DNA from: an uncultured Acidobacteriota bacterium
Lineage (GTDB): Bacteria > Acidobacteriota > Thermoanaerobaculia > UBA5066 > Gp7-AA6
Length of the DNA stretch: 64,000 nucleotides
Assembly (NCBI GenBank): GCA_963764715.1
Contig: CAVXTP010000022.1
Span: 480,001 to 544,000 of the forward strand
Direction: 5' to 3'
The number at the start of each line of letters is the position of its first letter. The first letter of the stretch is position 1. Positions 7,764 to 64,000 of the stretch are shown one piece after another. The position numbers and the translations under genes are program-made. The notes beneath the pieces are model-generated. The model had not been told where the DNA came from, did not search any database, and worked only from the letters and a program-made list of their open reading frames with translations.

Positions 7764-9758
7764 TTGCCCACGACAATCAAGACCATTCTCGTCGGGAAGG
7801 CCCGGGATCCGATGGATCCTCGAGTCTTTCACGCCGTCTCGCTCGCCGCCTTCCTCGCCTGGGTGGGCCTCGGCGCCGACGGCCTCTCGTCCTCGGCCTA
7901 CGGCCCGGAGGAAGCGTTCAAGGCGCTCGGGTCCCACGCCTACCTGTCGGTCTTCCTCGCGCTGATGATCGCGGCCACCGTCCTCATCATCTCGGCCTGC
8001 TACAGCAAGGTCATCGAGCTCTTCCCCGGCGGGGGTGGCGGTTACCTGGTCGCCACCAAGCTCCTCGGCCCGCGCTTCGGCGTGGTCTCGGGCTGCGCCC
8101 TCATCTTCGACTACGTGCTCACGATTTCGACATCGGTGGCCTCCGGAATCGACCAGATCTTCAGCTTCCTGCCGCTGTCGTGGAGCGGCTACCGGTTCGT
8201 GTTCAAGCTGCTGATCCTCGGCGTCCTCGTGCTGCTCAACCTCCGGGGCGTCAAGGAAAGCGTCCAGATCCTCGTTCCGATCTTCATCGTCTTCGTCGTC
8301 ACCCACTTCCTCATGGTCGTCGTGGCGGTCGGTCAGCACCTGTTCGACCTTCCGCGCATCTACCTCGGGGCGATTCGGGAAGCGCAGGGGACGGCGAGCG
8401 AGATCGGGGGGCTCGCCACGCTCTTCATCATCTTCCGGGCCTACTCGCTCGGTGCCGGTGCGTATACGGGCATCGAGGCCGTGTCGAACGGCGTTCAGAT
8501 TCTCCGCGAGCCCAAGGTCGCCAACGCAAAGCGAACCATGGCTTACATGGCCACCTCGCTGGCGGTCATGGCGGCCGGCATTATCCTCGGCTACCTGCTG
8601 ACCGACGCGCGTCCGACTCCCGGCCGCGTCATGAACGCGATCCTCGCCGAGAAGGTGTTCGGCGGCTGGACGATCGGCGGATTCGGCATCGGGCATGTCA
8701 TAGTGGTCCTGACGCTCGCCGCCGCGGGCTCGATTCTCTTCGTTGCGGCCCAGACGGGCTTTCTCGACGGACCGCGGATTCTGGCCAACATGGCGGTCGA
8801 CTCCTGGGCCCCCCGCCGGTTCGCCCAGCTCTCCGACCGTCTCGTGACGAACAACGGCGTTCTCCTCATGGGGATCGCCGCGGCGGCAACGCTCGTCTAC
8901 ACCCGCGGCTCCGTGTCGAGCCTGCTCGTCATGTACGCGATCAACGTGTTCGTGACGTTCAGCCTCACGCTCATCGGGATGACGCGCCACTGGTGGCAGG
9001 AGCGCGGGCGCGACGCCGCCTGGAAGAAAGGCTTCGCGCTCCAGGGCTTCGGAGCGGTCCTCTGCATCGGGATCCTCATCATCACGGTCTACGAGAAGGC
9101 CTACGAGGGCGGCTGGATGACGATCGTCGTGACGACGCTGCTCGTGACCCTCGCCTTTTCGATCAAGCGCCATTACCTGCGCGTCCGAGACCAGCTCCGG
9201 CGGCTCGACGAGCAGCTCCTCGACATTCCCGTGCGTCCCCACCCGCAAGAGGCCGGGGAGATCTCTCGGGAGGAGCCGCTCGCCGTGATGCTGGTCAATG
9301 GATTCTCGGGTCTCGGCGTCCACACGGTGCTGTCCGTTCAGACACTCTTCCCGCACCAGTACAAGAGCTACCTCTTCGTCTCGGTGGGCGTCATCGATTC
9401 GGCGATCTTCAAGGGCCATTCCGAAATCGAGGCCCTCGAGAAGCACACGGTCGAGGACCTGAAGAAGTACGTGGACTTCGCCCGCAAGCTCGGCTTCAAG
9501 GCGGACTACCGGTACAAGATCGGCACCGAGGCGGTCGAGGCGGTCGTCGACGTCTGCGAGGACGTTGGCAAGGAATTCCCGAGATCCATCTTCTACCTCG
9601 GCCAGCTCGTCTTCGAAAACGACAAGTTCTACTACCGCCTGCTCCACAACGAGACGGCATTCGCCATCCAGCGCCGCCTCCAGTTTGCAGGGCTGCAGGC
9701 GGTCGTGCTGCCGATCCGGGTGCTGGAGTCGAGGAAACGCCTCAAGAAGGCGTCCTGA
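7764..9758 (+). CDS. APC-family transporter, KimA/YdaO-like
   Basis: DGLSSSAYGPEE, GGGGYLVA and TGIEAVSNGV motifs; about 12 TM helices plus a cytoplasmic C-terminal domain; TTG start. Confidence 0.85.
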   Translation: MPTTIKTILVGKARDPMDPRVFHAVSLAAFLAWVGLGADGLSSSAYGPEEAFKALGSHAYLSVFLALMIAATVLIISACYSKVIELFPGGGGGYLVATKLLGPRFGVVSGCALIFDYVLTISTSVASGIDQIFSFLPLSWSGYRFVFKLLILGVLVLLNLRGVKESVQILVPIFIVFVVTHFLMVVVAVGQHLFDLPRIYLGAIREAQGTASEIGGLATLFIIFRAYSLGAGAYTGIEAVSNGVQILREPKVANAKRTMAYMATSLAVMAAGIILGYLLTDARPTPGRVMNAILAEKVFGGWTIGGFGIGHVIVVLTLAAAGSILFVAAQTGFLDGPRILANMAVDSWAPRRFAQLSDRLVTNNGVLLMGIAAAATLVYTRGSVSSLLVMYAINVFVTFSLTLIGMTRHWWQERGRDAAWKKGFALQGFGAVLCIGILIITVYEKAYEGGWMTIVVTTLLVTLAFSIKRHYLRVRDQLRRLDEQLLDIPVRPHPQEAGEISREEPLAVMLVNGFSGLGVHTVLSVQTLFPHQYKSYLFVSVGVIDSAIFKGHSEIEALEKHTVEDLKKYVDFARKLGFKADYRYKIGTEAVEAVVDVCEDVGKEFPRSIFYLGQLVFENDKFYYRLLHNETAFAIQRRLQFAGLQAVVLPIRVLESRKRLKKAS

Positions 9759-53375: not shown

Positions 53376-54062
53376 GTGCCGCCGAGGCCGCCGATCCCGT
53401 TCAACGCCATCCCCATCCTCGCGCCCCTGACGGGCGAGGATCGCGCCGCGCTCGACCCGATCTGCGAGCTCAAGGCCTACGAGAAGGGCGAGGTGCTCTT
53501 CGAGGAAGGCTCGCCCGCGCTCTTCATCCAGTTCGTCTTCGTGGGACGCGTCAAGATCGTCAAGGCCGCCCCGGACCGCGACCTCATCCTCGAGATCCTC
53601 GGCCCCGGCGAGCCGGTCGGCGCGGTCGCGGTCTTCGAGCAGCGCCCCTACCCCGCCTCCGCCATCGCCCTCGAGCCGAGCGGAACGATCGCGATTCCCG
53701 AGCGCGAGTTCTTCCGCCTCGTCGAGAAGCGGCCCGAGATCACCCGCCGCCTGCTCGCGGGCCTCACGATGCGCCTCATGGCCTTGAACCGCCGGCTCGC
53801 CGACATGACCGGGTCCGTCGAATACCGCGCGGCGCGGCTCTTCTCGACGCTCGCGGAGCGGGCCGGCCGCAAGCAGGCCGACGGGATCTTCGTGCCGATC
53901 CACCTCTCCCGCCAGGACATCGCCGACCTCGCCGGGACGACGATCGAGACGGCCATCCGGATCATGAGCCGCTGGCAGAAGGAGGGGCTCGTCGAGACCG
54001 AGAAAGACGGGTTCCTGATCCGGCAGATCGCCGCCCTGCGCGAGCTCGCTCCGGCCGAATAG
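53376..54062 (+). CDS. Crp/Fnr family transcriptional regulator (DNR/NnrR/HcpR-like)
   Basis: LFEEG, GRVKI, YPASA and HTH SRQDIADLAGTTIETAIR; no FNR Cys cluster. Confidence 0.92.
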   Translation: MPPRPPIPFNAIPILAPLTGEDRAALDPICELKAYEKGEVLFEEGSPALFIQFVFVGRVKIVKAAPDRDLILEILGPGEPVGAVAVFEQRPYPASAIALEPSGTIAIPEREFFRLVEKRPEITRRLLAGLTMRLMALNRRLADMTGSVEYRAARLFSTLAERAGRKQADGIFVPIHLSRQDIADLAGTTIETAIRIMSRWQKEGLVETEKDGFLIRQIAALRELAPAE

Positions 54063-54096: not shown

Positions 54097-55485
54097 CTAG
54101 TGCAGGTGCGCCGAGGGGTTGCCCGGAGGCAGAGCGGCGAAGGCCGGGTGCTCCGGGTTGCCGCGGGTCAGGATCATCGCGTAGAGGAAGGGCCCGAAGC
54201 TCGTCCCGCGGCGGCCGTTGACGGCGACGATCGGCGTCCCGTCGGAGTCGAACTGCGCGGCGGCCGCGAGGTCCTGCTGCAGCGCGGCCTGGGTCGCGGG
54301 CGAGGCAATGCAGGCGGCCAGCTTCTCGGGGGCCATGAATGGCGCGGCGATCGCCAGCACCGCGTTGCGATTCAGGTCCTTCTGCTTCGCAAAGAGGGCG
54401 GCCGCGAATTCGGGCTCCTTGCCCGACGGCTCCATGCAGATGCGCGCGGACGCCGCCACGCAGCGGACGTCGTCGCCCTTTCCGCCTTCGAAGGCGGGGT
54501 TGCACCGGCCGTCCAGCGGGTACTGCCGCGCGTCGACGCTGAAGCTTCCGGGGTCCGTGTGCTCGCGCAGCGTCTGCATCGTCTCCTGGAGGCCGGCGCA
54601 GTGCTCGCAGAGGATGTCGGTGAACTCCGTGATCCGGACCGGCGCCACGGCCGAGCCCACGAGCGCGCGCGGCGCGGGCAGCATGGCCGGGGGGGCGCTC
54701 CGGTAGATCGCGAGCGAGTCGGCGAGCATCTGGCGTCCGGCCGGGTCGAGGGTCGCCACGAGCTCCGCGAGCTTGCGGTCCTTCAGCTCGTCTCCGGTCC
54801 CGGTCGAGGCGGCCGACGGGGCCGCGGCCGGCTCGGACGCCGCCGTCCCGCCCGAGGTGGCGGCCTCCGCAATCGCCCGCCGGCCGGCTTCCCCGCTCGT
54901 CTTCGGCGTGCGCAGCCCCGGGTACAGCAGCAGCGCGAATGCCGCGGCCATGCAGCCGAGAGCGAGAGTCCAGCCCCGGCCGGCCTCCGGCAGACCCTCG
55001 CGCCGCCAGCCGAGGAGCGCGATCGCCGCGTAGGCTCCGACCACCAGATACGTCCCGATGCATCCGACGCAGATCGTCCCCGCCGCCGCGCTCGCGGCGA
55101 GAAGGACGGCGACGGCGAGGATCCCGGCCCCGGCCGTCAGGCGCACGGCCGAGACGAGCGCCGCGGGCGGCCGGCCCGACGCGATCCGGGCGAGACCGGC
55201 GAGCGGAAGGACGAAGGCGGCGACGCTCCACACGAGCCCCCAGCCCGAGATCGGGAGTCCCGTCAGCCGGTGGACGGAGGAGGCGAGGGCGCCGTTCCAG
55301 AGGGCCGTGCAGTCGAACTTCCCGCCGAAGCCGCAAAACGAGCCGCCGCCCGAGCGCGCAACGACCAGCTCCGCCCACAGGAAGAGGGACCAGAGCGCGG
55401 AGAGCGCGCCGAGGGCCGTCAGCTTCACCCAGGATTTCGCGGCGAGGGGACCGGTCGGTCGAGCTCCCGTATCGGCTTTAGCCAT
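54097..55485 (-). CDS. VKOR-DsbA/thioredoxin fusion
   Basis: FCG...FDC loop cysteines, TM helices with CVGC, then FTDILCEHC and GTP..AVNG. Confidence 0.88.
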   Translation of the reverse strand: MAKADTGARPTGPLAAKSWVKLTALGALSALWSLFLWAELVVARSGGGSFCGFGGKFDCTALWNGALASSVHRLTGLPISGWGLVWSVAAFVLPLAGLARIASGRPPAALVSAVRLTAGAGILAVAVLLAASAAAGTICVGCIGTYLVVGAYAAIALLGWRREGLPEAGRGWTLALGCMAAAFALLLYPGLRTPKTSGEAGRRAIAEAATSGGTAASEPAAAPSAASTGTGDELKDRKLAELVATLDPAGRQMLADSLAIYRSAPPAMLPAPRALVGSAVAPVRITEFTDILCEHCAGLQETMQTLREHTDPGSFSVDARQYPLDGRCNPAFEGGKGDDVRCVAASARICMEPSGKEPEFAAALFAKQKDLNRNAVLAIAAPFMAPEKLAACIASPATQAALQQDLAAAAQFDSDGTPIVAVNGRRGTSFGPFLYAMILTRGNPEHPAFAALPPGNPSAHLH

Positions 55486-56731: not shown

Positions 56732-56766
56732 CGATTTCAAGCTAGAGCCTGCCCGAACCGGGCGCC

Positions 56767-56780
56767 ATGATGCAAATCAT
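56767..56780. promoter_or_regulatory. Crp/Fnr-type operator ATGATGCAAATCAT
   Basis: Perfect ATGAT-N4-ATCAT centred 42.5 bp from GTG 56731; minus-strand -10 TAGCTT. Confidence 0.7.
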
Positions 56781-56841
56781 CCAGATGGAGCGAGAGCTCA
56801 CGCCGGCGTGAACCGCAAAAATCGGTGAAATCGAGCCGGAC

Positions 56842-56855
56842 ATGACGGGCATCAT
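56842..56855. promoter_or_regulatory. Crp/Fnr-type operator ATGACGGGCATCAT
   Basis: 13 of 14 positions identical to 51543-51556; upstream of the nosZ-containing operon. Confidence 0.7.
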
Positions 56856-56897
56856 AAGCCCCTCACCGGCCCCCGCGGGATCGTTCGATCGAGAACG

Positions 56898-57122
56898 ATG
56901 AGCAGGCCCCCCAAGCCGACCGCCCCCCCCGCCGCACGGGAATTCCTTTCGACGGGCGAAGTCGCGCGCCTCTTCGGCGTCTCGCCGTCGGCCGTGACCC
57001 GCTGGGCGCGCACCGGGGTCCTCAAGGCCGTCCGCACGCCCGGGGGGCACTACCGATTCCGCGCGAGCACGCTGCGCCGGGCCGCGATCGAGATCCCCGA
57101 CGAGCCGCAGCGCCTGGACTGA
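56898..57122 (+). CDS. BldC/excisionase-like small HTH protein
   Basis: LSTGEVARLFGVSPSAVTRWARTGVLKAVRTPGGHYRF. Confidence 0.85.
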   Translation: MSRPPKPTAPPAAREFLSTGEVARLFGVSPSAVTRWARTGVLKAVRTPGGHYRFRASTLRRAAIEIPDEPQRLD

Positions 57123-57126
57123 CGCC

Positions 57127-59052
57127 GTGCCGATCGCCGCCCGCCTTCCCGATCTCGCCCACTGGAAAGCCCAGGTCAAGTGCCAGGCCGGCTGCCCCGT
57201 CGCGACGGACGCCGGGCGATACGTCCAGCTGATCGCCGACGGGCGCGACGAGGATGCGTTCCTCGTCGCCCGGGCGCCGAACCCCTTCGCCTCGGTCTGC
57301 GGCCGCGTCTGCGCGGCGCCCTGCGAGGACGCCTGCCGTCGGGGCGCGATCGACTCGCCGATCTCGATCCGCGCGCTCAAGCGCTTCGTGACCGAGAAGT
57401 ACGGCGTCGAGTCGATCCGGCCAGCCACCCAGGACGTCCTGCGCGACGCTCTCGTGACCGAGGGCAATCGCTACGCCGGGCACCTTCCCGTGCATCCCCT
57501 CTCGGGAAACGGCGGGAAAGCGCGCGTGCGGGTCGCCGTCATCGGAGCCGGCCCGTCGGGCCTCTCGGCCGCGCACGACCTGGCCCTCCTCGGCTACGCC
57601 GTCACGGTCTTCGAAGCCTCCGAGGAGCCCGGCGGCATGATGCGCTTCGGCATCCCGGAGTACCGGCTTCCCCGCACGCTCATCCGCGCGGAGATCGAAA
57701 AGATCCTCTCGCTCGGCGTCACGCTGAAGCTCCGGACGCCGCTCTCGCCCGACTTCGGTCTCGCTGCGCTCCGGGCCGAAGGGTTCGAGTCCGTCTTCCT
57801 TTCGGTCGGAGTCTCCCGCGGCCGCGACCTGCAGGTGCCGGGCGTCGAGAAGGACGGCGTCGTCAAGGCCGTCGACTACCTCTTGAACGTCAACCGGGGC
57901 TTCCGGATGGACCTCGGGCGCCGCGTCGTCGTCATCGGCGGCGGCTTCGTCGCCTTCGACGCCGCGCGCACGGCGCTCCGTCTCGGACGGGAGGCGGACG
58001 TCGACCGCCTCGAAGCGGATTTCGACGCCGCCGACGAGAGCGCCCGGATGAAGGAGGCGCTCGACTCGGCGCGCGCGGCGATCCGGGGAGGCGCGGCCGA
58101 GGTCACGATCGTGTCGCTCGAGAGCTTCGAGGAGATGCCCGTCCTCCGGACGACCCAGGGGCACGAGGAGTTCGAGGAAGCGAAGAAAGAGGGCGTCGTA
58201 TTCGTCCCCCGGCGCGGTCCGAGCCGTTTCCTGGGCGGCAATCGCCTCGAGGCCGTCGAGCTGAAGCGGGTCGTCTCCGTCTTCGACGAGAACGGCCGGT
58301 TCGCCCCGCGCTACGACGAGACCGACCTCATCTCGCTTCCGGCCGACGCCTGCGTTTTGGCCATCGGGCAGCAGCCCGACCTCTCGTTCCTCAAGCCCGC
58401 GGACGGCGTCGCGCTGTCGCCGGGCGGGACCATCAAGGTCGACCCCGCGACCCTCGCGACCTCCGCCCCCGGCATCTTCGCGGGGGGCGACGTCGCGTTC
58501 GGCCCCCGCAACCTCATCGAGGCCGTCGCCAACGGAAAGCTCGCCGCGCGCTCGATCCACGAGCGCCTCTCGCGGGAGACCCCGCGCCTCGAGTCGCATC
58601 TGGAGGTCGAAAAGATCCCGACCGCGAGCTATCGGATGGTCGCGGGCTTCGAGATCTTCGACCGCGAGTCCCCCCCGATGCTCGACGTCGGCCGGCGCAC
58701 CGGCATCGCCGAGGTCGAAACGGGCTACGCCGAGGTCGAGGCCCGCCGCCAGGCCGCGCGGTGCCTCGTCTGCCACGTCCAGACGATCTACGACCCGGAG
58801 AAGTGCGTCCTCTGCAACCGCTGCGTGGACATCTGCCCCGAATACTGCCTGTCGATCGTTCCCTTCGAGGCGCTCGACCTGCCCGCCGAGGAGCGCGCCG
58901 CGCTCGCGGCCCGCGCGGAGGCCGACGGGCTGCCGCTCTCGGCCATGGTCAAGGACGACGAGCGCTGCATCCGGTGCGGCCTCTGCGCGATCCGCTGCCC
59001 GACCGACGCGATGACGATGGAGCGCTTCTCGATCACGGAGCGATTCCGGTGA
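57127..59052 (+). CDS. GltD/DsrL-like FAD/NAD(P) oxidoreductase with C-terminal 2x[4Fe-4S] domain
   Basis: CQAGCP...CGRVCAAPCEDACRR, GAGPSG, FGIPEYRLP, GGGFVAFD, RCLVC, CVLCNRCVDICP and CIRCGLCAIRCP motifs. Confidence 0.9.
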   Translation: MPIAARLPDLAHWKAQVKCQAGCPVATDAGRYVQLIADGRDEDAFLVARAPNPFASVCGRVCAAPCEDACRRGAIDSPISIRALKRFVTEKYGVESIRPATQDVLRDALVTEGNRYAGHLPVHPLSGNGGKARVRVAVIGAGPSGLSAAHDLALLGYAVTVFEASEEPGGMMRFGIPEYRLPRTLIRAEIEKILSLGVTLKLRTPLSPDFGLAALRAEGFESVFLSVGVSRGRDLQVPGVEKDGVVKAVDYLLNVNRGFRMDLGRRVVVIGGGFVAFDAARTALRLGREADVDRLEADFDAADESARMKEALDSARAAIRGGAAEVTIVSLESFEEMPVLRTTQGHEEFEEAKKEGVVFVPRRGPSRFLGGNRLEAVELKRVVSVFDENGRFAPRYDETDLISLPADACVLAIGQQPDLSFLKPADGVALSPGGTIKVDPATLATSAPGIFAGGDVAFGPRNLIEAVANGKLAARSIHERLSRETPRLESHLEVEKIPTASYRMVAGFEIFDRESPPMLDVGRRTGIAEVETGYAEVEARRQAARCLVCHVQTIYDPEKCVLCNRCVDICPEYCLSIVPFEALDLPAEERAALAARAEADGLPLSAMVKDDERCIRCGLCAIRCPTDAMTMERFSITERFR

Positions 59053-59063
59053 AGGAGCCGAAG

Positions 59064-59570
59064 ATGACCGAGACCAAGGACCGCCGGGAGTTCCTCTTGA
59101 AGATCGGCATCGGGAGCGGGATCGCCGCCCTCGGCGCGCAGACCGTCGCCTCGATGCGGTCCCTCGTCCCGAACGTCTCGTACGACGCCCCGACGACCGT
59201 CAAGATCGGCGCGCCGAACGACTTTCCGGACGGCCTGCAGTTCCTGCCGGACCAGCGCCTCTACGTCTTCCGGGACGGCCGGACGTTCCACGCGATCTCG
59301 GCGGTCTGCACGCACCTCGGCTGCACCGTCCGCGCGGAGGCCCTCGCGAAGATCGAGACGGCGACGGTCGACGGCCAGCCGCTCCGGCTGACCCACCGGT
59401 TCCTCTGCCCGTGCCACGGCTCCCGGTACAACGGCGACGGCACGAACGTCTCCGGTCCCGCCCCGAAGCCCCTGACCTGGTTCCACCTGTCCGTCGCCCC
59501 CGAGGACGGCCAGCTCGTCGTCGACCTCGCCCGTCCCGTCGACCGCGACTTCCGCCTGACCGTGGCCTGA
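59064..59570 (+). CDS. Rieske [2Fe-2S] subunit
   Basis: Tat DRREFL, CTHLGC, CPCHGSRY and GPAP motifs; AAGGAG RBS. Confidence 0.93.
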   Translation: MTETKDRREFLLKIGIGSGIAALGAQTVASMRSLVPNVSYDAPTTVKIGAPNDFPDGLQFLPDQRLYVFRDGRTFHAISAVCTHLGCTVRAEALAKIETATVDGQPLRLTHRFLCPCHGSRYNGDGTNVSGPAPKPLTWFHLSVAPEDGQLVVDLARPVDRDFRLTVA

Positions 59571-59580
59571 AGGAGACCGC

Positions 59581-60963
59581 ATGAGCGCCAAGCCCGAAAA
59601 GACCCAGCCTCCCGCCGCTCCGGGCGTGCACCCGCGGCGCTGGTGGAGCTTTCGTCCCGCCTCCGACCGGCAGGCCGGCGACGCGATCGTGTCCAACTTC
59701 ATGCTGCACTGGTTCCCGGCCAAGAGCTTCAAAGCCTCGATGGCGTGGAGCTACTCCTTCTGGCTCGGCACGGTCTCCGCGGCGCTCCTCTTCCTGCTCG
59801 TCCTCTCGGGCCTGCCGCTCCTCTTCCTCTACATCCCCTCGGTCGAGCGCGCCTACGCCTCGGTCAAGGACATCGAGTACGTCATCACGTTCGGCTCGTG
59901 GATCCGCGCGGTGCACCGGATCTCGGCGCACCTGATGGTGGCCGCGGTCTTCCTCCACCTCGTCCGGGTCTTCCTGACCGGCGCCTACAAGAACGGCGTC
60001 GTGAGGGGGGCCGGAGGGGACCAACGGTCCCCCCTTCATGGAAGCGGCCAGAAGCGGCAATGGAACTGGGTCATCGGCGTCGTGATGCTGCTCCTGACCC
60101 TCTTCCTCTCGTTCACCGGGTACCTCCTTCCCTGGGACCAGCTCGCCTACTGGGCGGTCACGGTCGGAACCAACATCGCCTCCTCCGTCCCCTACGTCGG
60201 CCCCGCGATCCGGGAGCTCCTGATCGGGGGACGCACGATCGAGCAGGCGACGCTCATCCGGTTCTACGTCCTCCACGTCCTCTTCCTGCCGATGCTCATC
60301 GGCGTCCTCTTCGGCTACCACATGTGGCGCGTCCGGAAGGACGGCGGGCTCGCCCGCGCCGACGGCGCGCGGCTCGCGGAATCCAAGACCGACGCCCCTC
60401 CCTCGAAGTCCAAGACGTACACGCTCCTCGGCATCGCCCGGGGGACGTCGCCGCACGTGAAGGCCTCGACGCTCGAGGCCCCCGAGACGACCGTCAACTC
60501 CGTCCCGGACCTGACGCGCCGCATCGCGATCGTGATCCTCGGGACGATCGCGCTCGTCGGCATCCTCTCGGTCTTCGTCCGCTCGCCGCTCGAGGAGCCG
60601 GCGAACCCGCTGATCACGCCGAACCCCGCCAAGGCGCCCTGGTATTTCCTGTGGCTCCAGGAAATCGTGACCGACACGACGGTCCACATCGGCTCCTTCA
60701 CGATCAACGGCGCGTTCCTCGGCGGGGTCCTGCTGCCGGGCGCGCTCCTCGCCCTGATGACCATCTGGCCGTGGCTCGACCGGAGCCCCGCCGCCGCGAC
60801 GGGCGCCTGGTTCGCGAAGACCCGCCGCCGGCAGAACCTCCTCTTCCTCCTTCTCGTCGCGGCCGTGCTCGCCCTGACGGTCGTCGGCACCTTCCTGCGC
60901 GGCCCCTACTGGCACTTCTACTGGCCCTGGCAGCCCTGGCCCGAGCTGCCCTCGAGGATCTGA
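59581..60963 (+). CDS. Cytochrome b (b6-like plus subunit IV, fused)
   Basis: HRISAHLMV..LH, FTGYLLPWDQ, RFYVLH-x14-H and EEPANP..TPNPAKAPWYF motifs. Confidence 0.92.
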   Translation: MSAKPEKTQPPAAPGVHPRRWWSFRPASDRQAGDAIVSNFMLHWFPAKSFKASMAWSYSFWLGTVSAALLFLLVLSGLPLLFLYIPSVERAYASVKDIEYVITFGSWIRAVHRISAHLMVAAVFLHLVRVFLTGAYKNGVVRGAGGDQRSPLHGSGQKRQWNWVIGVVMLLLTLFLSFTGYLLPWDQLAYWAVTVGTNIASSVPYVGPAIRELLIGGRTIEQATLIRFYVLHVLFLPMLIGVLFGYHMWRVRKDGGLARADGARLAESKTDAPPSKSKTYTLLGIARGTSPHVKASTLEAPETTVNSVPDLTRRIAIVILGTIALVGILSVFVRSPLEEPANPLITPNPAKAPWYFLWLQEIVTDTTVHIGSFTINGAFLGGVLLPGALLALMTIWPWLDRSPAAATGAWFAKTRRRQNLLFLLLVAAVLALTVVGTFLRGPYWHFYWPWQPWPELPSRI

Positions 60964-60964
60964 C

Positions 60965-62191
60965 ATGGAACAGAGAACCGATTCCCCCTATCCGAAGAAG
61001 GACCGGCCGATCCTCGCGATCGTCGGCGTGCTGCTCGTCGTCTCGACGGTCCTCTTCGCGTGGAGCGACCGCAAGCACGACTGGCGCTACTACCAGTACG
61101 CCTTCCGCGCCCAGGTGACCGAGAAGCTCGGGGCGGAGAAGGCCGCGACCATCCCGAAGGGCGTCCAACAGATCTGGGTCTCCGAGATGCGCCGCGCCGA
61201 CCGCTGCATCACCTGTCACCAGGCGATGCTCTGGAAGGGCTTCGAGAAGGCCGAGAACCCCTACAAGTCGCACCCCGTCGAGCCCCTCAAGGGGCATCCA
61301 ATCGAGAAGTACGGCTGCACCGCCTGCCACGGCGGCCAGGGCTGGGCCATCGACGACGTCGCCGCGCACGGCCCGGTCGAGCACTGGGAGGAGCCCCTCC
61401 TGGGGTCGCAGCTCGGCGAGGCCTACACGCTCTCGGCCCAGAAGTCGGCGCTCATGCAGATGAACTGCAACGTGTGCCACCGCTTCGACCGCGAGACGAA
61501 GGGGGCCGACGAGATCAACCTGGCGAAGAAGCTCGTCCTCGAGAAGGGCTGCCGCGCCTGCCACGTGATCAACGGCCGCGGCGGAACGATCGGCCCCGAC
61601 CTCACGTGGGTCGGCGACAAGGCACCCGAGCAGTACGAGTACGGGCGGCTCTCGGGCCAGAAGAGCGCCTACGCCTGGCACGTCGCCCACTTCAAGGACC
61701 CCCGGGCCCTCGTGCCGGAGACGGTCATGCCGAACTTCCACTTCACCACCCGCGACGCCCAGGCGCTGGCGATGCTGGCGCTCTCGTGGCGGCGCGCGCC
61801 GATTCCGGCCGACTACCGGCCGGGGCTCCCCCGCACCGACCCCCAGACCCCGGAGGAGATCGCCGAAGAGCAGCGGATGAAGACCGGCCCCGGCGCCTGG
61901 TTCGTCAAGACGGGCTGCTTCGTCTGCCACTCCATCCAGTCGCTCGGGGTCAAGAGCCCGGCCCAGATCGGGCCCGATCTCTCGACGGCGGTCGAGGACA
62001 CGCAGGCGCGCTTCGGCCGCACGGTCGACGACTTCCTCCGCGAGCCGACGGGAACGATGGCCGTCGTGCTGTCGCGCCAGATCGTGCTGACGCCGCAGGA
62101 GAAGGAGATCGCCGTCCAGAAGCTGCGGGAGGCGTTCGCCGAGCACCAGAAACAGAAGGCCGAGGGAAAACCCGAAGCCGGCGGCCATTGA
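60965..62191 (+). CDS. Membrane-anchored pentaheme cytochrome c
   Basis: N-terminal TM; CITCH, CTACH, CNVCH, CRACH and CFVCH. Confidence 0.92.
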   Translation: MEQRTDSPYPKKDRPILAIVGVLLVVSTVLFAWSDRKHDWRYYQYAFRAQVTEKLGAEKAATIPKGVQQIWVSEMRRADRCITCHQAMLWKGFEKAENPYKSHPVEPLKGHPIEKYGCTACHGGQGWAIDDVAAHGPVEHWEEPLLGSQLGEAYTLSAQKSALMQMNCNVCHRFDRETKGADEINLAKKLVLEKGCRACHVINGRGGTIGPDLTWVGDKAPEQYEYGRLSGQKSAYAWHVAHFKDPRALVPETVMPNFHFTTRDAQALAMLALSWRRAPIPADYRPGLPRTDPQTPEEIAEEQRMKTGPGAWFVKTGCFVCHSIQSLGVKSPAQIGPDLSTAVEDTQARFGRTVDDFLREPTGTMAVVLSRQIVLTPQEKEIAVQKLREAFAEHQKQKAEGKPEAGGH

Positions 62192-62222
62192 AACGGTAAC
62201 CCGAGAGGGAAGGAGAACGACG

Positions 62223-64000
62223 ATGAGTCAGACGAGGAAGAGCTGGATCACATGGAGCGCTCTCGCGGTCTTCGCGGTCGCCGCCGCGCTCGCCGGCCGC
62301 TGCGCGCCGAGCGCGCCGAAGGCCGGGGGCAAGAAGGGCGCCCCCGCCGGCGCGTCGGACCTCGCGGTCGCGGCGCAGAAGACCTACGTCCCGCCCGGAG
62401 ACCTCGACGAGTACTACATGTTCGCCTCGGGCGGACACTCGGGCCAGGTCTACGTCTACGGGATCCCGTCGATGCGCCACCTCTCGACGATCCCGGTCTA
62501 CACGCCCTACCCCGCCACCGGCTACGGCTTCGACGACGAGTCGAAGGCGATGCTCGGCGGCCGGCTGACGTGGGGCGACGTTCACCATCCGTCCCTCTCG
62601 GAGACGGGCGGCGACTACGACGGACGCTGGCTCTTCGTCAACGACATGAACGGCCGGGTCGCCCGCATCGACCTGCGCGACTTCAAGACCAAGCAGATCT
62701 TCGGACCCATGCCCAACATCTCGGGCAATCACGGTTCGGCTTTCGTCACGCCCAACACCGAGTACTCGGTCATGGCCTCGCGCTTTTCGATCCCGATCCC
62801 CAAGGGAACCGCCGCCCCGATCGACAATTACGCCACCGACTACAAGGGCGTCGTCGCCGCCGTGAAGATCGACCCGAAGACCGGCGAGATGACGCAGGGC
62901 TTCGAGATTCTCATGCCTCCCTTCGACTACGACCTCGGCGACGCCGGGAAAAAGGCCTCGGACGGCTGGATGTTCTTCACCTGCTACAACTCCGAGCGCG
63001 CGACCGGAAAGCTCGAGGTCACGGCCTCGCAGCGGGACCGGGACTACATCGCCGCCGTCGACTGGAAGGCCGCCGAGAAGGCGATCGCCGAGGGCAAGGG
63101 CGACATGATCGGCGGCGTCAAGGTCCTCGATCCGCGGAAGGTCCCCGGGCTCGTCTACTTCATGCCCTGCGGAAAGTCCCCCCACGGCGTCGACGTCTCG
63201 CCGGACGGCAAGTACATCATCGGCTCGGGCAAGCTCCAGGGCGTGACGACGGCCTTCAATTTCGAGAAGGTCCAGACCGCCATCCGCAACAAGGACTTCA
63301 CGGGCGACGAGGACGGGATCCCGGTCCTCAAGTACGAGTCGATCAAGGACGCGGAAGTCCCGGTCGGGCTCGGACCGCTCCACACCCAGTTCGGACCCAA
63401 CGGCGAGTGCTACACCTCGCTCTTCGTCGACAGCGCGATCGCCAAGTGGAAGCTCGGGACCTGGGAAGTGATCGACAAGGTCCCGATGTCGTACTCCATC
63501 GGGCACCTGGCGGCGGCCGAGGGCGACACCGTCTCTCCGGACGGCAAGTACCTCGTCGGACTGAACAAGCTGTCCCACGGCCGGCATCTCTCGGTCGGGC
63601 CGTCCCAGCCCGAGTCGTCGCAGCTCGTCGACATCTCCGAAGAGAAGATGAAGATCCTCTACGACGCCTTCACGGAGCCGGAGCCTCATTACGCGCAGAT
63701 CATCAAGGCCGACAAGATCAAGCCGATCGAGGTCTATCCGAAGGACGAGAACAAGAACCCGAACGCGATCTGGGACGTCAAGGATGCGGGCGTCACGCGC
63801 AAGGGCAGCGAGGTCCTCGCGAAGGTCGTCCTCGTCCGCTCGACGATCTCGCCGACGGCGATCGAGGTTGAAGAGGGCGACACGGTCAAGGTGGTCATGA
63901 CCAACATCGAGCAGACGACCGATGAGCTCCACGGGTTCGGCCTCCTCGACTACAACATCAACATCGTCTGCGACCCCGGCGAGACCAAGACCGTCACCTT
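62223..64000 (+). CDS. nosZ: Nitrous oxide reductase, clade II (Sec-dependent); truncated by the window end
   Basis: Not in the ORF track; read by hand. No twin-arginine motif; YVPPGDLDEYY.F.SGGHSGQ, WGDVHHP, GNHG, KSPHGVD, LGPLHT, SIGH, EPHY and the CuA-domain start HGF. Confidence 0.96.
   Translation, partial: MSQTRKSWITWSALAVFAVAAALAGRCAPSAPKAGGKKGAPAGASDLAVAAQKTYVPPGDLDEYYMFASGGHSGQVYVYGIPSMRHLSTIPVYTPYPATGYGFDDESKAMLGGRLTWGDVHHPSLSETGGDYDGRWLFVNDMNGRVARIDLRDFKTKQIFGPMPNISGNHGSAFVTPNTEYSVMASRFSIPIPKGTAAPIDNYATDYKGVVAAVKIDPKTGEMTQGFEILMPPFDYDLGDAGKKASDGWMFFTCYNSERATGKLEVTASQRDRDYIAAVDWKAAEKAIAEGKGDMIGGVKVLDPRKVPGLVYFMPCGKSPHGVDVSPDGKYIIGSGKLQGVTTAFNFEKVQTAIRNKDFTGDEDGIPVLKYESIKDAEVPVGLGPLHTQFGPNGECYTSLFVDSAIAKWKLGTWEVIDKVPMSYSIGHLAAAEGDTVSPDGKYLVGLNKLSHGRHLSVGPSQPESSQLVDISEEKMKILYDAFTEPEPHYAQIIKADKIKPIEVYPKDENKNPNAIWDVKDAGVTRKGSEVLAKVVLVRSTISPTAIEVEEGDTVKVVMTNIEQTTDELHGFGLLDYNINIVCDPGETKTVT

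Follow-up and report, generated by a model that had tools for sequence, protein, structure and literature searches.

Nitrous oxide (N2O) is a greenhouse gas for which NosZ is, to our knowledge, the only known biological sink. Organisms with clade II NosZ dominate many soils. How do electrons reach this enzyme? So far as we are aware, a detailed picture of the route exists for the Wolinella type alone, for which Hein et al. in 2017 reportedly described a NosGH/C1C2 system and, apart from it, a Rieske/cytochrome bc complex. Clade II nos clusters are also said to contain Rieske, cy-b and cy-c genes, as Sanford et al. reportedly found in 2012. Here we analyze a stretch of 64,000 nucleotides (the window) from an uncultured acidobacterium whose genome assembly, GCA_963764715.1, spans 4.36 Mb and is 96.8% complete. 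The window covers positions 480001-544000 of contig CAVXTP010000022.1 (C22). Near its 3' end lies an operon in which genes for a flavoprotein of the type that binds nicotinamide adenine dinucleotide (phosphate), NAD(P), a Rieske protein, a cytochrome b and a pentaheme cytochrome c stand directly before nosZ.

The closest described complexes come from the anaerobic ammonium-oxidizing (anammox) bacterium Kuenenia stuttgartiensis. The Kuenenia complexes Kuste4569-4574 and Kustd1480-1485 have been proposed to bifurcate quinol electrons, reducing NAD(P)+ (Kartal et al. 2013, as described in PMC12954380). Structures 9rk4 and 9rk3 are Kuste4569 and Kustd1480 (PMC12954380, Table 1), and the Rieske potentials reported for Kuenenia are +303 and +335 mV (PMC12954380). 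For the flavoprotein, Kuste4570, NfnABC (9bp5) is named as a structural homolog. In an AlphaFold3 model, an additional b heme at the dimer axis is bound by the His43 residues of two Kuste4571 chains, and from this heme four iron-sulfur (FeS) clusters lead to flavin adenine dinucleotide (FAD) (PMC12954380). The published scheme includes a heme cN as well (PMC12954380, Fig. 8 legend).

Related gene neighborhoods have appeared in print. In one figure, clade II nos clusters carry genes labeled Rieske, cy-b, cy-c and 'Fe-S' (PMC11096178, Fig. 5 legend), and a 2017 paper remarks that oxidoreductase genes of this kind neighbor those for cytochrome b 'in many other cases' (PMC5600118). A search of full-text literature, which left figures and supplements aside and so may have passed over a labeled figure, turned up no discussion of an NAD(P)/FAD flavoprotein as part of a nos cluster and no link between nos clusters and the anammox complexes. 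The new element is the link of such a Rieske/cytochrome b/flavoprotein module to NosZ.

We propose that the operon is a self-contained unit for N2O respiration and that its anammox-type Rieske/cytochrome b complex bifurcates quinol electrons, sending them to NosZ and, through the docked flavoprotein, to NAD(P)+. To this reading, taken as a whole, we assign a probability of about 0.5. Its parts differ in strength. The association of the module with NosZ is the firmest of them, and the net direction of electron flow through the flavoprotein is the least certain.

Conservation of the module with nosZ

At about 70% G+C the window opens many spurious reading frames, and genes were therefore assigned by domain content. 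The six co-directional, closely spaced genes noticed in the preliminary description are all present on the plus strand (Table 1): those for a helix-turn-helix (HTH) protein, the flavoprotein, the Rieske protein, cytochrome b, the pentaheme cytochrome c and NosZ, in that order, with intergenic gaps of 4, 11, 10, 1 and 31 bp. No terminator-like site was found on the plus strand from the flavoprotein gene to nosY, although this is a weak test.

A search of 41 related genomes gave two groups of flavoprotein homologs. In the first, the order flavoprotein-Rieske-cytochrome b-pentaheme c-NosZ(-NosD-F-Y) is kept in nine of nine orthologous loci, at 75-92% identity. The second comprises 10 loci at 42-53% flavoprotein identity; nine have the order flavoprotein-Rieske-cytochrome b-multiheme c, and none has NosZ. 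A scan of 185,579 species genomes with a flavoprotein profile then yielded at least 565 loci encoding relatives, the best 80 of which were examined. NosZ follows downstream in the same order in 35 of these best 80, and the rest are mostly cut by contig ends or belong to a distinct clade outside nos clusters. The 35 nos-linked loci come from Acidobacteriota (several classes), Anaeromyxobacter and other Myxococcota, Ignavibacteriota, Bacteroidota and Kryptoniota. Conservation of the block around nosZ, on which the preliminary description had staked its proposal, is thus found both among the orthologs and elsewhere, and it goes well beyond chance.

Does every NosZ come with this block? In a sample of 401 genomes from the phylum, 40 encode NosZ at E<=1e-80. 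In 18 of the 40 (the source genome, G000, included), nosZ is preceded on the same contig and strand by the flavoprotein gene, at a distance of about 3-5 kb. The split follows NosZ itself: the block is present in each of the 17 other genomes with a NosZ at least 64% identical to that of G000, and in none of the 22 whose NosZ is at most 61% identical. The module therefore travels with one NosZ subclade. This is a large subclade, equipped with a complex-III-like module of its own that includes an NAD(P)-type flavoprotein, and it extends to Anaeromyxobacter, Ignavibacteriota, Bacteroidota and Kryptoniota.

Trees were built from translations delimited by tblastn, after removal of rows with stop codons, rows with less than 90% coverage and two duplicate loci. 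The flavoprotein tree of 90 rows has a clade of 50, made up of 41 nos-linked, nine contig-cut and no non-nos rows, with a support of 95 in the Shimodaira-Hasegawa-like approximate likelihood-ratio test (SH-aLRT). When the rows are reduced to 55, the nos clade receives an ultrafast bootstrap (UFboot) of 100 and an SH-aLRT of 99. The cytochrome b tree of 55 rows recovers the same nos clade (82/94) and the same sister, two Planctomycetota modules not linked to nos. Pairwise identities of the flavoprotein correlate with those of cytochrome b (Spearman 0.92, 1485 pairs) and of NosZ (0.83, 595 pairs); these correlations are descriptive only, because kin are not independent. With its linkage to nosZ across phyla, pure nos clades in both trees and the split of 17 of 17 against 0 of 22, the module fits the dedicated role in N2O respiration first suggested for it. 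Very probably, it is the dedicated quinol-oxidizing electron donor of NosZ.

The module also exists apart from nosZ. A paralogous flavoprotein-Rieske-cytochrome b-multiheme c module without nosZ is found in the same genus and order, and two genomes (G023 and G037) carry both forms. Others occur in Geothrix, Planctomycetota, Verrucomicrobiota, Krumholzibacteriota and Actinomycetota. The Actinomycetota module has the order flavoprotein-cytochrome b-Rieske, with a sulfocyanin-like cupredoxin downstream. Around five non-nos modules, the search for terminal enzymes met further c-type cytochromes in three (L026, L083, L108), the sulfocyanin-like cupredoxin in one (L093) and nothing recognizable in the last (L089).

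Two irregularities in the survey deserve mention. In one genome (G013, locus L023 on contig C7) the nos/Rieske block is broken into many shifted frames, and in another (G378, contig C2) the flavoprotein is split in two; either the assemblies contain many indel errors or the operons are decaying. A metagenome-assembled genome (MAG) labeled as Acidimicrobiia (L041) has a nos-linked flavoprotein that pairs, with full support, with that of an Acidobacteria MAG inside the acidobacterial clade. This placement points to mis-binning or recent transfer.

Predicted cofactors and proposed routes for electrons

The flavoprotein consists of an N-terminal domain for two [4Fe-4S] clusters, Rossmann domains for FAD and NAD(P), and a C-terminal extension with an RCLxC motif and a ferredoxin domain for two more [4Fe-4S] clusters. 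Alignments of 14 and of 33 homologs show invariant cysteines at positions 19, 23, 58, 62, 66, 70, 546, 549, 560, 563, 566, 570, 574, 614, 617, 620 and 624, together with invariant dinucleotide motifs at G140/G142/G145 (FAD) and G271-G273 (NAD(P)). Eight of the cysteines (C19, C23, C58, C62, C66, C70, C546 and C549) match those of the two GltD/NfnB clusters, and two further CxxCxxCxxxCP motifs are invariant among homologs. The protein carries the ligand set for four [4Fe-4S] clusters, FAD and NAD(P), and these are its predicted cofactors. A hydropathy scan found no hydrophobic segment and no signal peptide. Lacking both an export signal and a membrane segment, the flavoprotein should stay in the cytoplasm.

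Its nearest solved relatives are NfnB-type modules. Sequence matches found with phmmer are to NfnA, NfnI-L and NfnB, at 2e-71 to 4e-58; the AlphaFold2 model has a predicted local distance difference test (pLDDT) score of 83 and a predicted template-modeling score of 0.84, and the top Foldseek matches are NfnABC, StnABC, NfnI and NfnB, at 5e-42 to 4e-32. By phmmer the flavoprotein is colinear with residues ~100-680 of the NfnABC large subunit 9bov_A (Bfu-type), and its residues 511-552, which end in RCLVC, equal the N-terminal segment of NfnB and NfnI-L.

The Rieske protein has a twin-arginine motif, DRREFL, and a single N-terminal hydrophobic anchor in the hydropathy scan. Its cluster box, CPCHGSRY, contains Ser as well as Tyr, the two residues that raise the potential of the adjacent cluster (PMC12954380). 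The Tyr is found in 37 of 43 nos-linked Rieske proteins; outside this set, in a class that also holds contig-cut loci, the position is mostly Phe. The best solved matches are 9rk4_A (8.8e-19) and 9rk3_A (3.9e-17), ahead of the Rieske proteins of b6f complexes. Both are Kuenenia proteins, and 9bov_A, which the flavoprotein matches, is of the same sequence set as 9bp5, the NfnABC structure given for Kuste4570. The comparison with anammox bacteria made in the preliminary description therefore stands.

Cytochrome b has seven hydrophobic helices, a four-helix b6-like part being fused to a three-helix part like subunit IV. Its best sequence matches are cytochrome b6 chains (~1e-33). Among NCBIfam models, ExtP (224.5 bits; cut-off 290) and ExtQ (79.4 bits; cut-off 150) come closest, each under its cut-off. 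Across 33 aligned sequences the heme ligands H112, H126 and H247 are invariant and H232 nearly so, and their spacing, H-x13-H and H-x14-H, is of the b6 type. The Qo motif of canonical bc1 and b6f complexes is PEWY, PDWY or PVWY. Here KAPWYF replaces PEWY and is invariant in all 33 sequences. Equally invariant is His43, also in the non-nos relatives from Planctomycetota, Verrucomicrobiota and Actinomycetota; in the AlphaFold2 model (pLDDT 73; template-modeling score 0.64 to full-length bc1 cytochrome b) it sits at the end of an N-terminal helix before helix TM-A. The n-side loop between helices B and C holds a 13-residue insert rich in Gly and Arg (residues ~139-153; window 59995-60040), modeled with low confidence. 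As a docking element it was set aside, being unique to one genome among the 33, same-genus homologs included. Three further cytochrome b loci in the genome (on contigs C11, C20 and C3) have no flavoprotein partner.

The pentaheme cytochrome c has its CXXCH motifs at residues 81, 118, 168, 196 and 318 and one N-terminal hydrophobic helix at residues 16-34. All 38 nos-linked homologs with more than 90% coverage have five such motifs. NosZ itself is 627 residues long, is encoded by a single-copy gene that ends 107 bp past the window, and scores 910 bits with the Sec-dependent model TIGR04246 (cut-off 625) against 441 bits with the twin-arginine (TAT) type model, under its cut-off of 625. As judged from these features, the Rieske protein (exported by the twin-arginine route), cytochrome b and the pentaheme cytochrome c are predicted to face or span the membrane and NosZ to be periplasmic. 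The genome has menaquinone genes of the MqnA/D family and NuoD, with no UbiG above cut-off, so the host is probably a menaquinone organism with complex I.

How might electrons move through such a complex? Menaquinol would be oxidized at the Qo site with its invariant KAPWY motif. The first electron would pass to the high-potential-type Rieske cluster (CPCHGSRY) and from there through the five c hemes to NosZ and N2O. The second would cross the membrane by hemes bL and bH and, instead of being solely recycled to quinone, would go on to the flavoprotein on the cytoplasmic face, possibly through an extra heme held by His43. Within the flavoprotein it would run along four [4Fe-4S] clusters to FAD and serve in the reduction of NAD(P)+, so that N2O reduction would pay for quinol-based bifurcation. 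The wire is likely reversible, and NAD(P)H could also feed in. Quinol-driven reduction of NAD(P)+ is slightly favored, because a high-potential-type Rieske protein occurs here in a menaquinone organism. That it is the net direction in vivo is nevertheless a tentative proposal, to which we give somewhat less than even odds. Its general form, in which soil N2O reducers of at least five phyla drive one electron uphill through the b hemes and a docked flavoprotein to NAD(P)H for each electron sent to NosZ and N2O, is more doubtful still.

Several points weigh against the bifurcation reading. An organism that has complex I (NuoD) and is probably a heterotroph has no obvious need for NAD(P)H made at the expense of quinol. 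The potential-raising Tyr is replaced by Phe in 6 of the 43 nos-linked Rieske proteins. His43 of cytochrome b is equated with the N-terminal His43 of Kuste4571 by equal numbering only. The Cys that binds heme cn is missing: at the column of b6 Cys35 the acidobacterial protein has Trp61, and Cys occurs in 0 of 33 aligned sequences. This is a difference from Kuenenia, where heme cN is part of the scheme, and the published electron path is therefore not transferable unchanged. The survey itself has a bias, in that the 80 loci were chosen by their flavoprotein and are blind to nos-linked Rieske/cytochrome b modules without one; only the 40 NosZ-bearing genomes of the phylum sample address NosZ genomes that lack the flavoprotein.

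Co-folding counts on both sides. One full cytochrome b chain was folded with flavoprotein residues 485-641, two hemes and two [4Fe-4S] clusters. The score was 0.36 (runs 0.36, 0.49 and 0.19), and the best of three controls reached 0.00. The mark for such scores is reached by 116 of 157 solved complexes and by 2 of 215 mismatched pairs; scores of 0.60 or less at the mark come from only 18 of the 157 solved complexes, and from both of the mismatched pairs that pass. Our runs used their own alignments and ligands, which places them outside this calibration, and with a single cytochrome b chain they offer no site at the dimer axis. The partner was modeled with pLDDT of at least 72, but the agreement of the runs on contacts has a lower bound of 0%, and no interface is reported. 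Of the interface that the preliminary description had asked about, there is thus a score above the controls and no consistent set of contacts. This is weak support, and it neither establishes nor excludes docking.

The main rival to bifurcation, which we consider rather unlikely, reverses the flow. The flavoprotein would then be an NAD(P)H dehydrogenase input to heme bH or to an n-side quinone, and the whole complex would serve NosZ privately as an NAD(P)H:cytochrome c oxidoreductase that runs an internal Q cycle and bypasses complex I. The first option in the preliminary description was of the same kind. Modules of the NfnB/GltD type commonly oxidize NADPH, as is known for the family, and a wire of FeS clusters and FAD should be reversible. 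The basic n-side residues R250, R252 and K253, which are conserved in cytochrome b, remain, so an n-side pocket may persist. With NAD(P)H near -320 mV and menaquinone near -70 mV, electron flow between the two in this sense would also be downhill (PMC12954380). However, complex I is already encoded in the genome and conserves more energy, and a Rieske protein with both Ser and Tyr in a menaquinone organism is a better fit to an uphill low-potential branch. No sequence feature was found that fixes the direction.

A second alternative leaves the flavoprotein out of the complex altogether. It would be a co-expressed soluble enzyme, for example an NADPH-linked reductase of the ferredoxin type that serves nos maturation or redox upkeep. 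The missing membrane segment would suit such a protein, as would the weak and discordant co-folding runs, and adjacency of genes alone is no proof of binding. Against this, the flavoprotein gene is strictly associated with those for the Rieske protein and cytochrome b across phyla, even in the Actinomycetota order flavoprotein-cytochrome b-Rieske; the flavoprotein and cytochrome b trees are congruent; and the existence of the module without nosZ argues against a role in nos maturation. The subunits of the Kuenenia homologs, moreover, are all reported to co-migrate, as cited in PMC12954380 and PMC5600118. We regard the soluble enzyme as improbable. The flavoprotein is probably a physical cytoplasmic subunit of the membrane complex, because it is strictly co-inherited with the other subunits, persists beside them under the changed gene order of Actinomycetota and has homologs with reported co-migration in Kuenenia.

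Least probable of all is a wire in which the flavoprotein and the b hemes, standing in for NosR, carry electrons of low potential outward from NAD(P)H and (re)activate CuZ of NosZ in the periplasm while bulk turnover electrons come from quinol via the Rieske protein: NosR, the FeS flavoprotein of clade I, which is characterized by nosR (PMC11409646), is indeed absent from the cluster, and the unusually short distances between heme bP and the c hemes in Kuenenia models would allow a leak (PMC12954380), but the same module lacks NosZ in many lineages, exporting electrons from the cytoplasm would run down the membrane potential, and we obtained no sequence evidence for a path from bP to a c heme.

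The distinction between bifurcation and its rivals matters for the physiology of N2O reducers. Should the flavoprotein prove to be a functioning subunit, N2O respiration in these bacteria would connect straight to the NAD(P)(H) pool, and estimates of growth yield and of electron competition would change. If bifurcation is true, N2O respiration would yield reducing power in addition to proton-motive force.

Promoter region, neighboring genes and the rest of the genome

The gene 5' of the operon lies on the opposite strand, which leaves the 157-bp spacer at 56741-56897 as the only promoter region. A scan for sigma-70 promoters found no site, an uninformative result at 70% G+C. Two palindromes were noted in the spacer. 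The proximal one is kept as ATGA[CT]-N4-[AG]TCAT in all five aligned upstream regions of near relatives, and we infer that a regulator may bind there. The FNR-like pattern matched by the distal one occurs eight times in the whole window against 3.45 expected, and the identical 14-mer is found upstream in 3 of 39 nos loci (L015, L017 and L034), all of them close relatives. A literature search on N2O-induced expression in Anaeromyxobacter gave nothing usable.

Table 1. Positions of the operon genes, upstream sites and neighboring genes in the window
Feature	Position	Strand	Basis or remark
ScdA_N/DUF1858/NnrS-like protein, 591 residues	51592-53367	+	
Crp/Fnr-family regulator	53400-54062	+	cNMP_binding and HTH_Crp_2
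DsbA-like thioredoxin protein	54097-55485	-	
Protein of no known family, 411 residues	55505-56740	-	
Distal palindrome ATGAT-N4-ATCAT (5-4-5)	56767-56780	+	FNR-like pattern match
Proximal palindrome ATGAC-N4-ATCAT, candidate Crp/Fnr-family site	56842-56855	+	43 bp before HTH start codon
HTH protein, 74 residues, excisionase/MerR/BldC type	56898-57122	+	Pfam HTH_17 6.5e-12, MerR 7e-10
NfnB/GltD-like flavoprotein, 641 residues	57127-59052	+	Pfam Fer4_20, Pyr_redox_2, Fer4 dicluster
Rieske [2Fe-2S] protein, 168 residues	59064-59570	+	Pfam Rieske 1.9e-11
Cytochrome b, 460 residues	59581-60963	+	Pfam Cytochrome_B and Cytochrom_B_C
Membrane-anchored pentaheme cytochrome c, 408 residues	60965-62191	+	Pfam Cytochrom_C, five CXXCH
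NosZ, Sec-dependent (clade II), first 592 of 627 codons in window	62223-64000	+	TIGR04246, Pfam nos_propeller

The regulator of the Crp/Fnr family, encoded 2.8 kb 5' of the operon, could be the binder of the conserved ATGA[CT]-N4-[AG]TCAT palindromes. The HTH protein at the head of the operon scores 62.8 bits with the NCBIfam model HTH_BldC, under its cut-off of 77. By tblastn, its gene is found 5' of the flavoprotein gene only in nine loci (L015, L016, L017, L023, L034, L035, L037, L038 and L052).

The other upstream neighbors are of mixed character. The 591-residue protein combines ScdA_N, an iron-sulfur repair domain of the RIC type, with DUF1858 and an NnrS-like membrane domain, an unusual fusion, near the nos region, of two modules associated with nitric oxide stress. 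The DsbA-like thioredoxin protein and the 411-residue protein are encoded divergently upstream of the operon, and the latter has just a 14-bit trace of Radical_SAM.

The preliminary description had pointed past position 64000 for the remaining nos genes. They were found there in part. The order after nosZ is a nosB-like gene, nosD (Pfam NosD, 3e-41), nosF (ABC_tran), an open reading frame (ORF) with a hemerythrin domain, and nosY (ABC2_membrane_2); in the 12 kb 3' of nosZ we saw neither nosL nor a nosR-like gene, and the ORFs of this region hold no NosG, NosH, NosC1 or NosC2 domain, the search for which was confined to it. The first ORF, directly 3' of nosZ, encodes 216 residues with four hydrophobic segments and matches no Pfam or NCBIfam model. 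In 35 of 40 nos loci it likewise comes next after nosZ, contig ends accounting for the five misses, and it has the position and character of nosB; we call it nosB-like. With this conserved gene after nosZ, nosB is probably not replaced by the block.

Some annotations in this region were rejected or revised. An ORF after nosY (12563/12827-13333 in locus L002) was tried as nosL and has no Pfam match even at E=1. It is doubtful as a gene, too: its translation is of low complexity, rich in Arg and Asp, it is kept in three close relatives only, and MauE/DoxX and rhodanese genes occupy the opposite strand. These convergent genes mark the end of the nos cluster. A NosD start at 8576 in L002 would overlap the nosB-like ORF; a likelier start is near 8816, at the signal-peptide-like sequence MILPAVALL. 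The hemerythrin-HHE-domain ORF between nosF and nosY (11177-11980 in L002, or 7177-7980 bases past the window end) was found by tblastn at the same place only in the near relatives L015, L017, L023, L034 and L035, and resembles RIC di-iron proteins weakly, at 21 bits.

Elsewhere in the genome there is no nirK above cut-off, the sole match being the cupredoxin domain of NosZ itself, and Cytochrom_D1 gives just a 33-bit partial match. On this evidence the bacterium would seem to be an N2O reducer that does not denitrify (nor, nar and nap lay outside the search), and it has several enzymes of the complex-III type.

Comparison with known systems

The locus shares with other clade II nos clusters a Sec-type NosZ followed by nosB (here a nosB-like gene), nosD, nosF and nosY, and genes for Fe-S, Rieske, b-type and c-type cytochrome proteins ahead of nosZ. 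It differs from those in print in the gene before Rieske, which is labeled 'Fe-S' at most in the available parts of the papers. It differs from the Wolinella type in that nosG, nosH, nosC1 and nosC2 were not seen in the 12 kb 3' of nosZ.

Cytochrome b6f and bc1 complexes are more distant. The b6-type spacing of heme ligands, the best matches to b6, the Rieske partner and the seven helices corresponding to b6 plus subunit IV are all in common, and ferredoxin:NADP+ reductase has been reported to bind b6f (as cited in PMC5600118). In the acidobacterial complex, however, KAPWY is found in place of PEWY, there is no Cys for heme cn, a pentaheme cytochrome c takes the place of cytochrome f or c1, and the FeS flavoprotein has a gene of its own in the operon. 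In Geobacter, ExtO, ExtP and ExtQ are the Rieske protein, cytochrome b and membrane protein of the extHIJKLMNOPQS cluster, which serves other acceptors (PMC5877670). ExtP, for the b6-like part, and ExtQ, for the C-terminal part, are the nearest curated families to our cytochrome b, although under their cut-offs; the ext cluster is described without a flavoprotein in the part of PMC5877670 available.

The flavoprotein has its own set of relatives. With the NfnB/GltD small-subunit fold and the large subunits of NfnABC and StnABC (9n5u_A, 9bov_A, 8oh5_C, 5jca_L and 4ylf_B) it shares Fer4_20, eight cysteines for two [4Fe-4S] clusters and the Rossmann folds for FAD and NAD(P), and with 9bov_A also the RCLxC motif and the ferredoxin domain for two [4Fe-4S] clusters. 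Unlike NfnABC and StnABC, it stands alone, without NfnA, NfnC or parts like formate dehydrogenase, and is encoded alongside a membrane complex. A further difference from NfnB-type modules is an insert of ~35 residues (288-321) in its NAD(P) domain, where model confidence is low.

The Kuenenia complexes remain the nearest parallel as a whole. Each is encoded by an operon that joins a Rieske protein, a b6-like cytochrome b with a part like subunit IV, a multiheme cytochrome c and a cytoplasmic protein with NAD(P), FAD and FeS sites, and the Ser beside the Rieske cluster of Kuste4569 recurs in the acidobacterial protein, which has the Tyr too. For cytochrome b and the flavoprotein the likeness rests on descriptions rather than on direct alignment. 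The differences are considerable. Cytochrome b and the subunit-IV-like part are fused here in one 460-residue chain, and the latter has three helices, against five in Kuenenia (PMC12954380). The cytochrome c has five hemes, not six or eight. The high-potential acceptor, by synteny, is NosZ, where Kuenenia has a protein like hydroxylamine oxidoreductase, and the host is an acidobacterium of the menaquinone type, probably a heterotroph. Work with anammox bacteria is difficult, whereas Anaeromyxobacter grows in pure culture. With the operon present in this culturable genus, the 2013 anammox proposal, that a Rieske/cytochrome b complex reduces NAD(P)+, would become testable with a defined gaseous acceptor.

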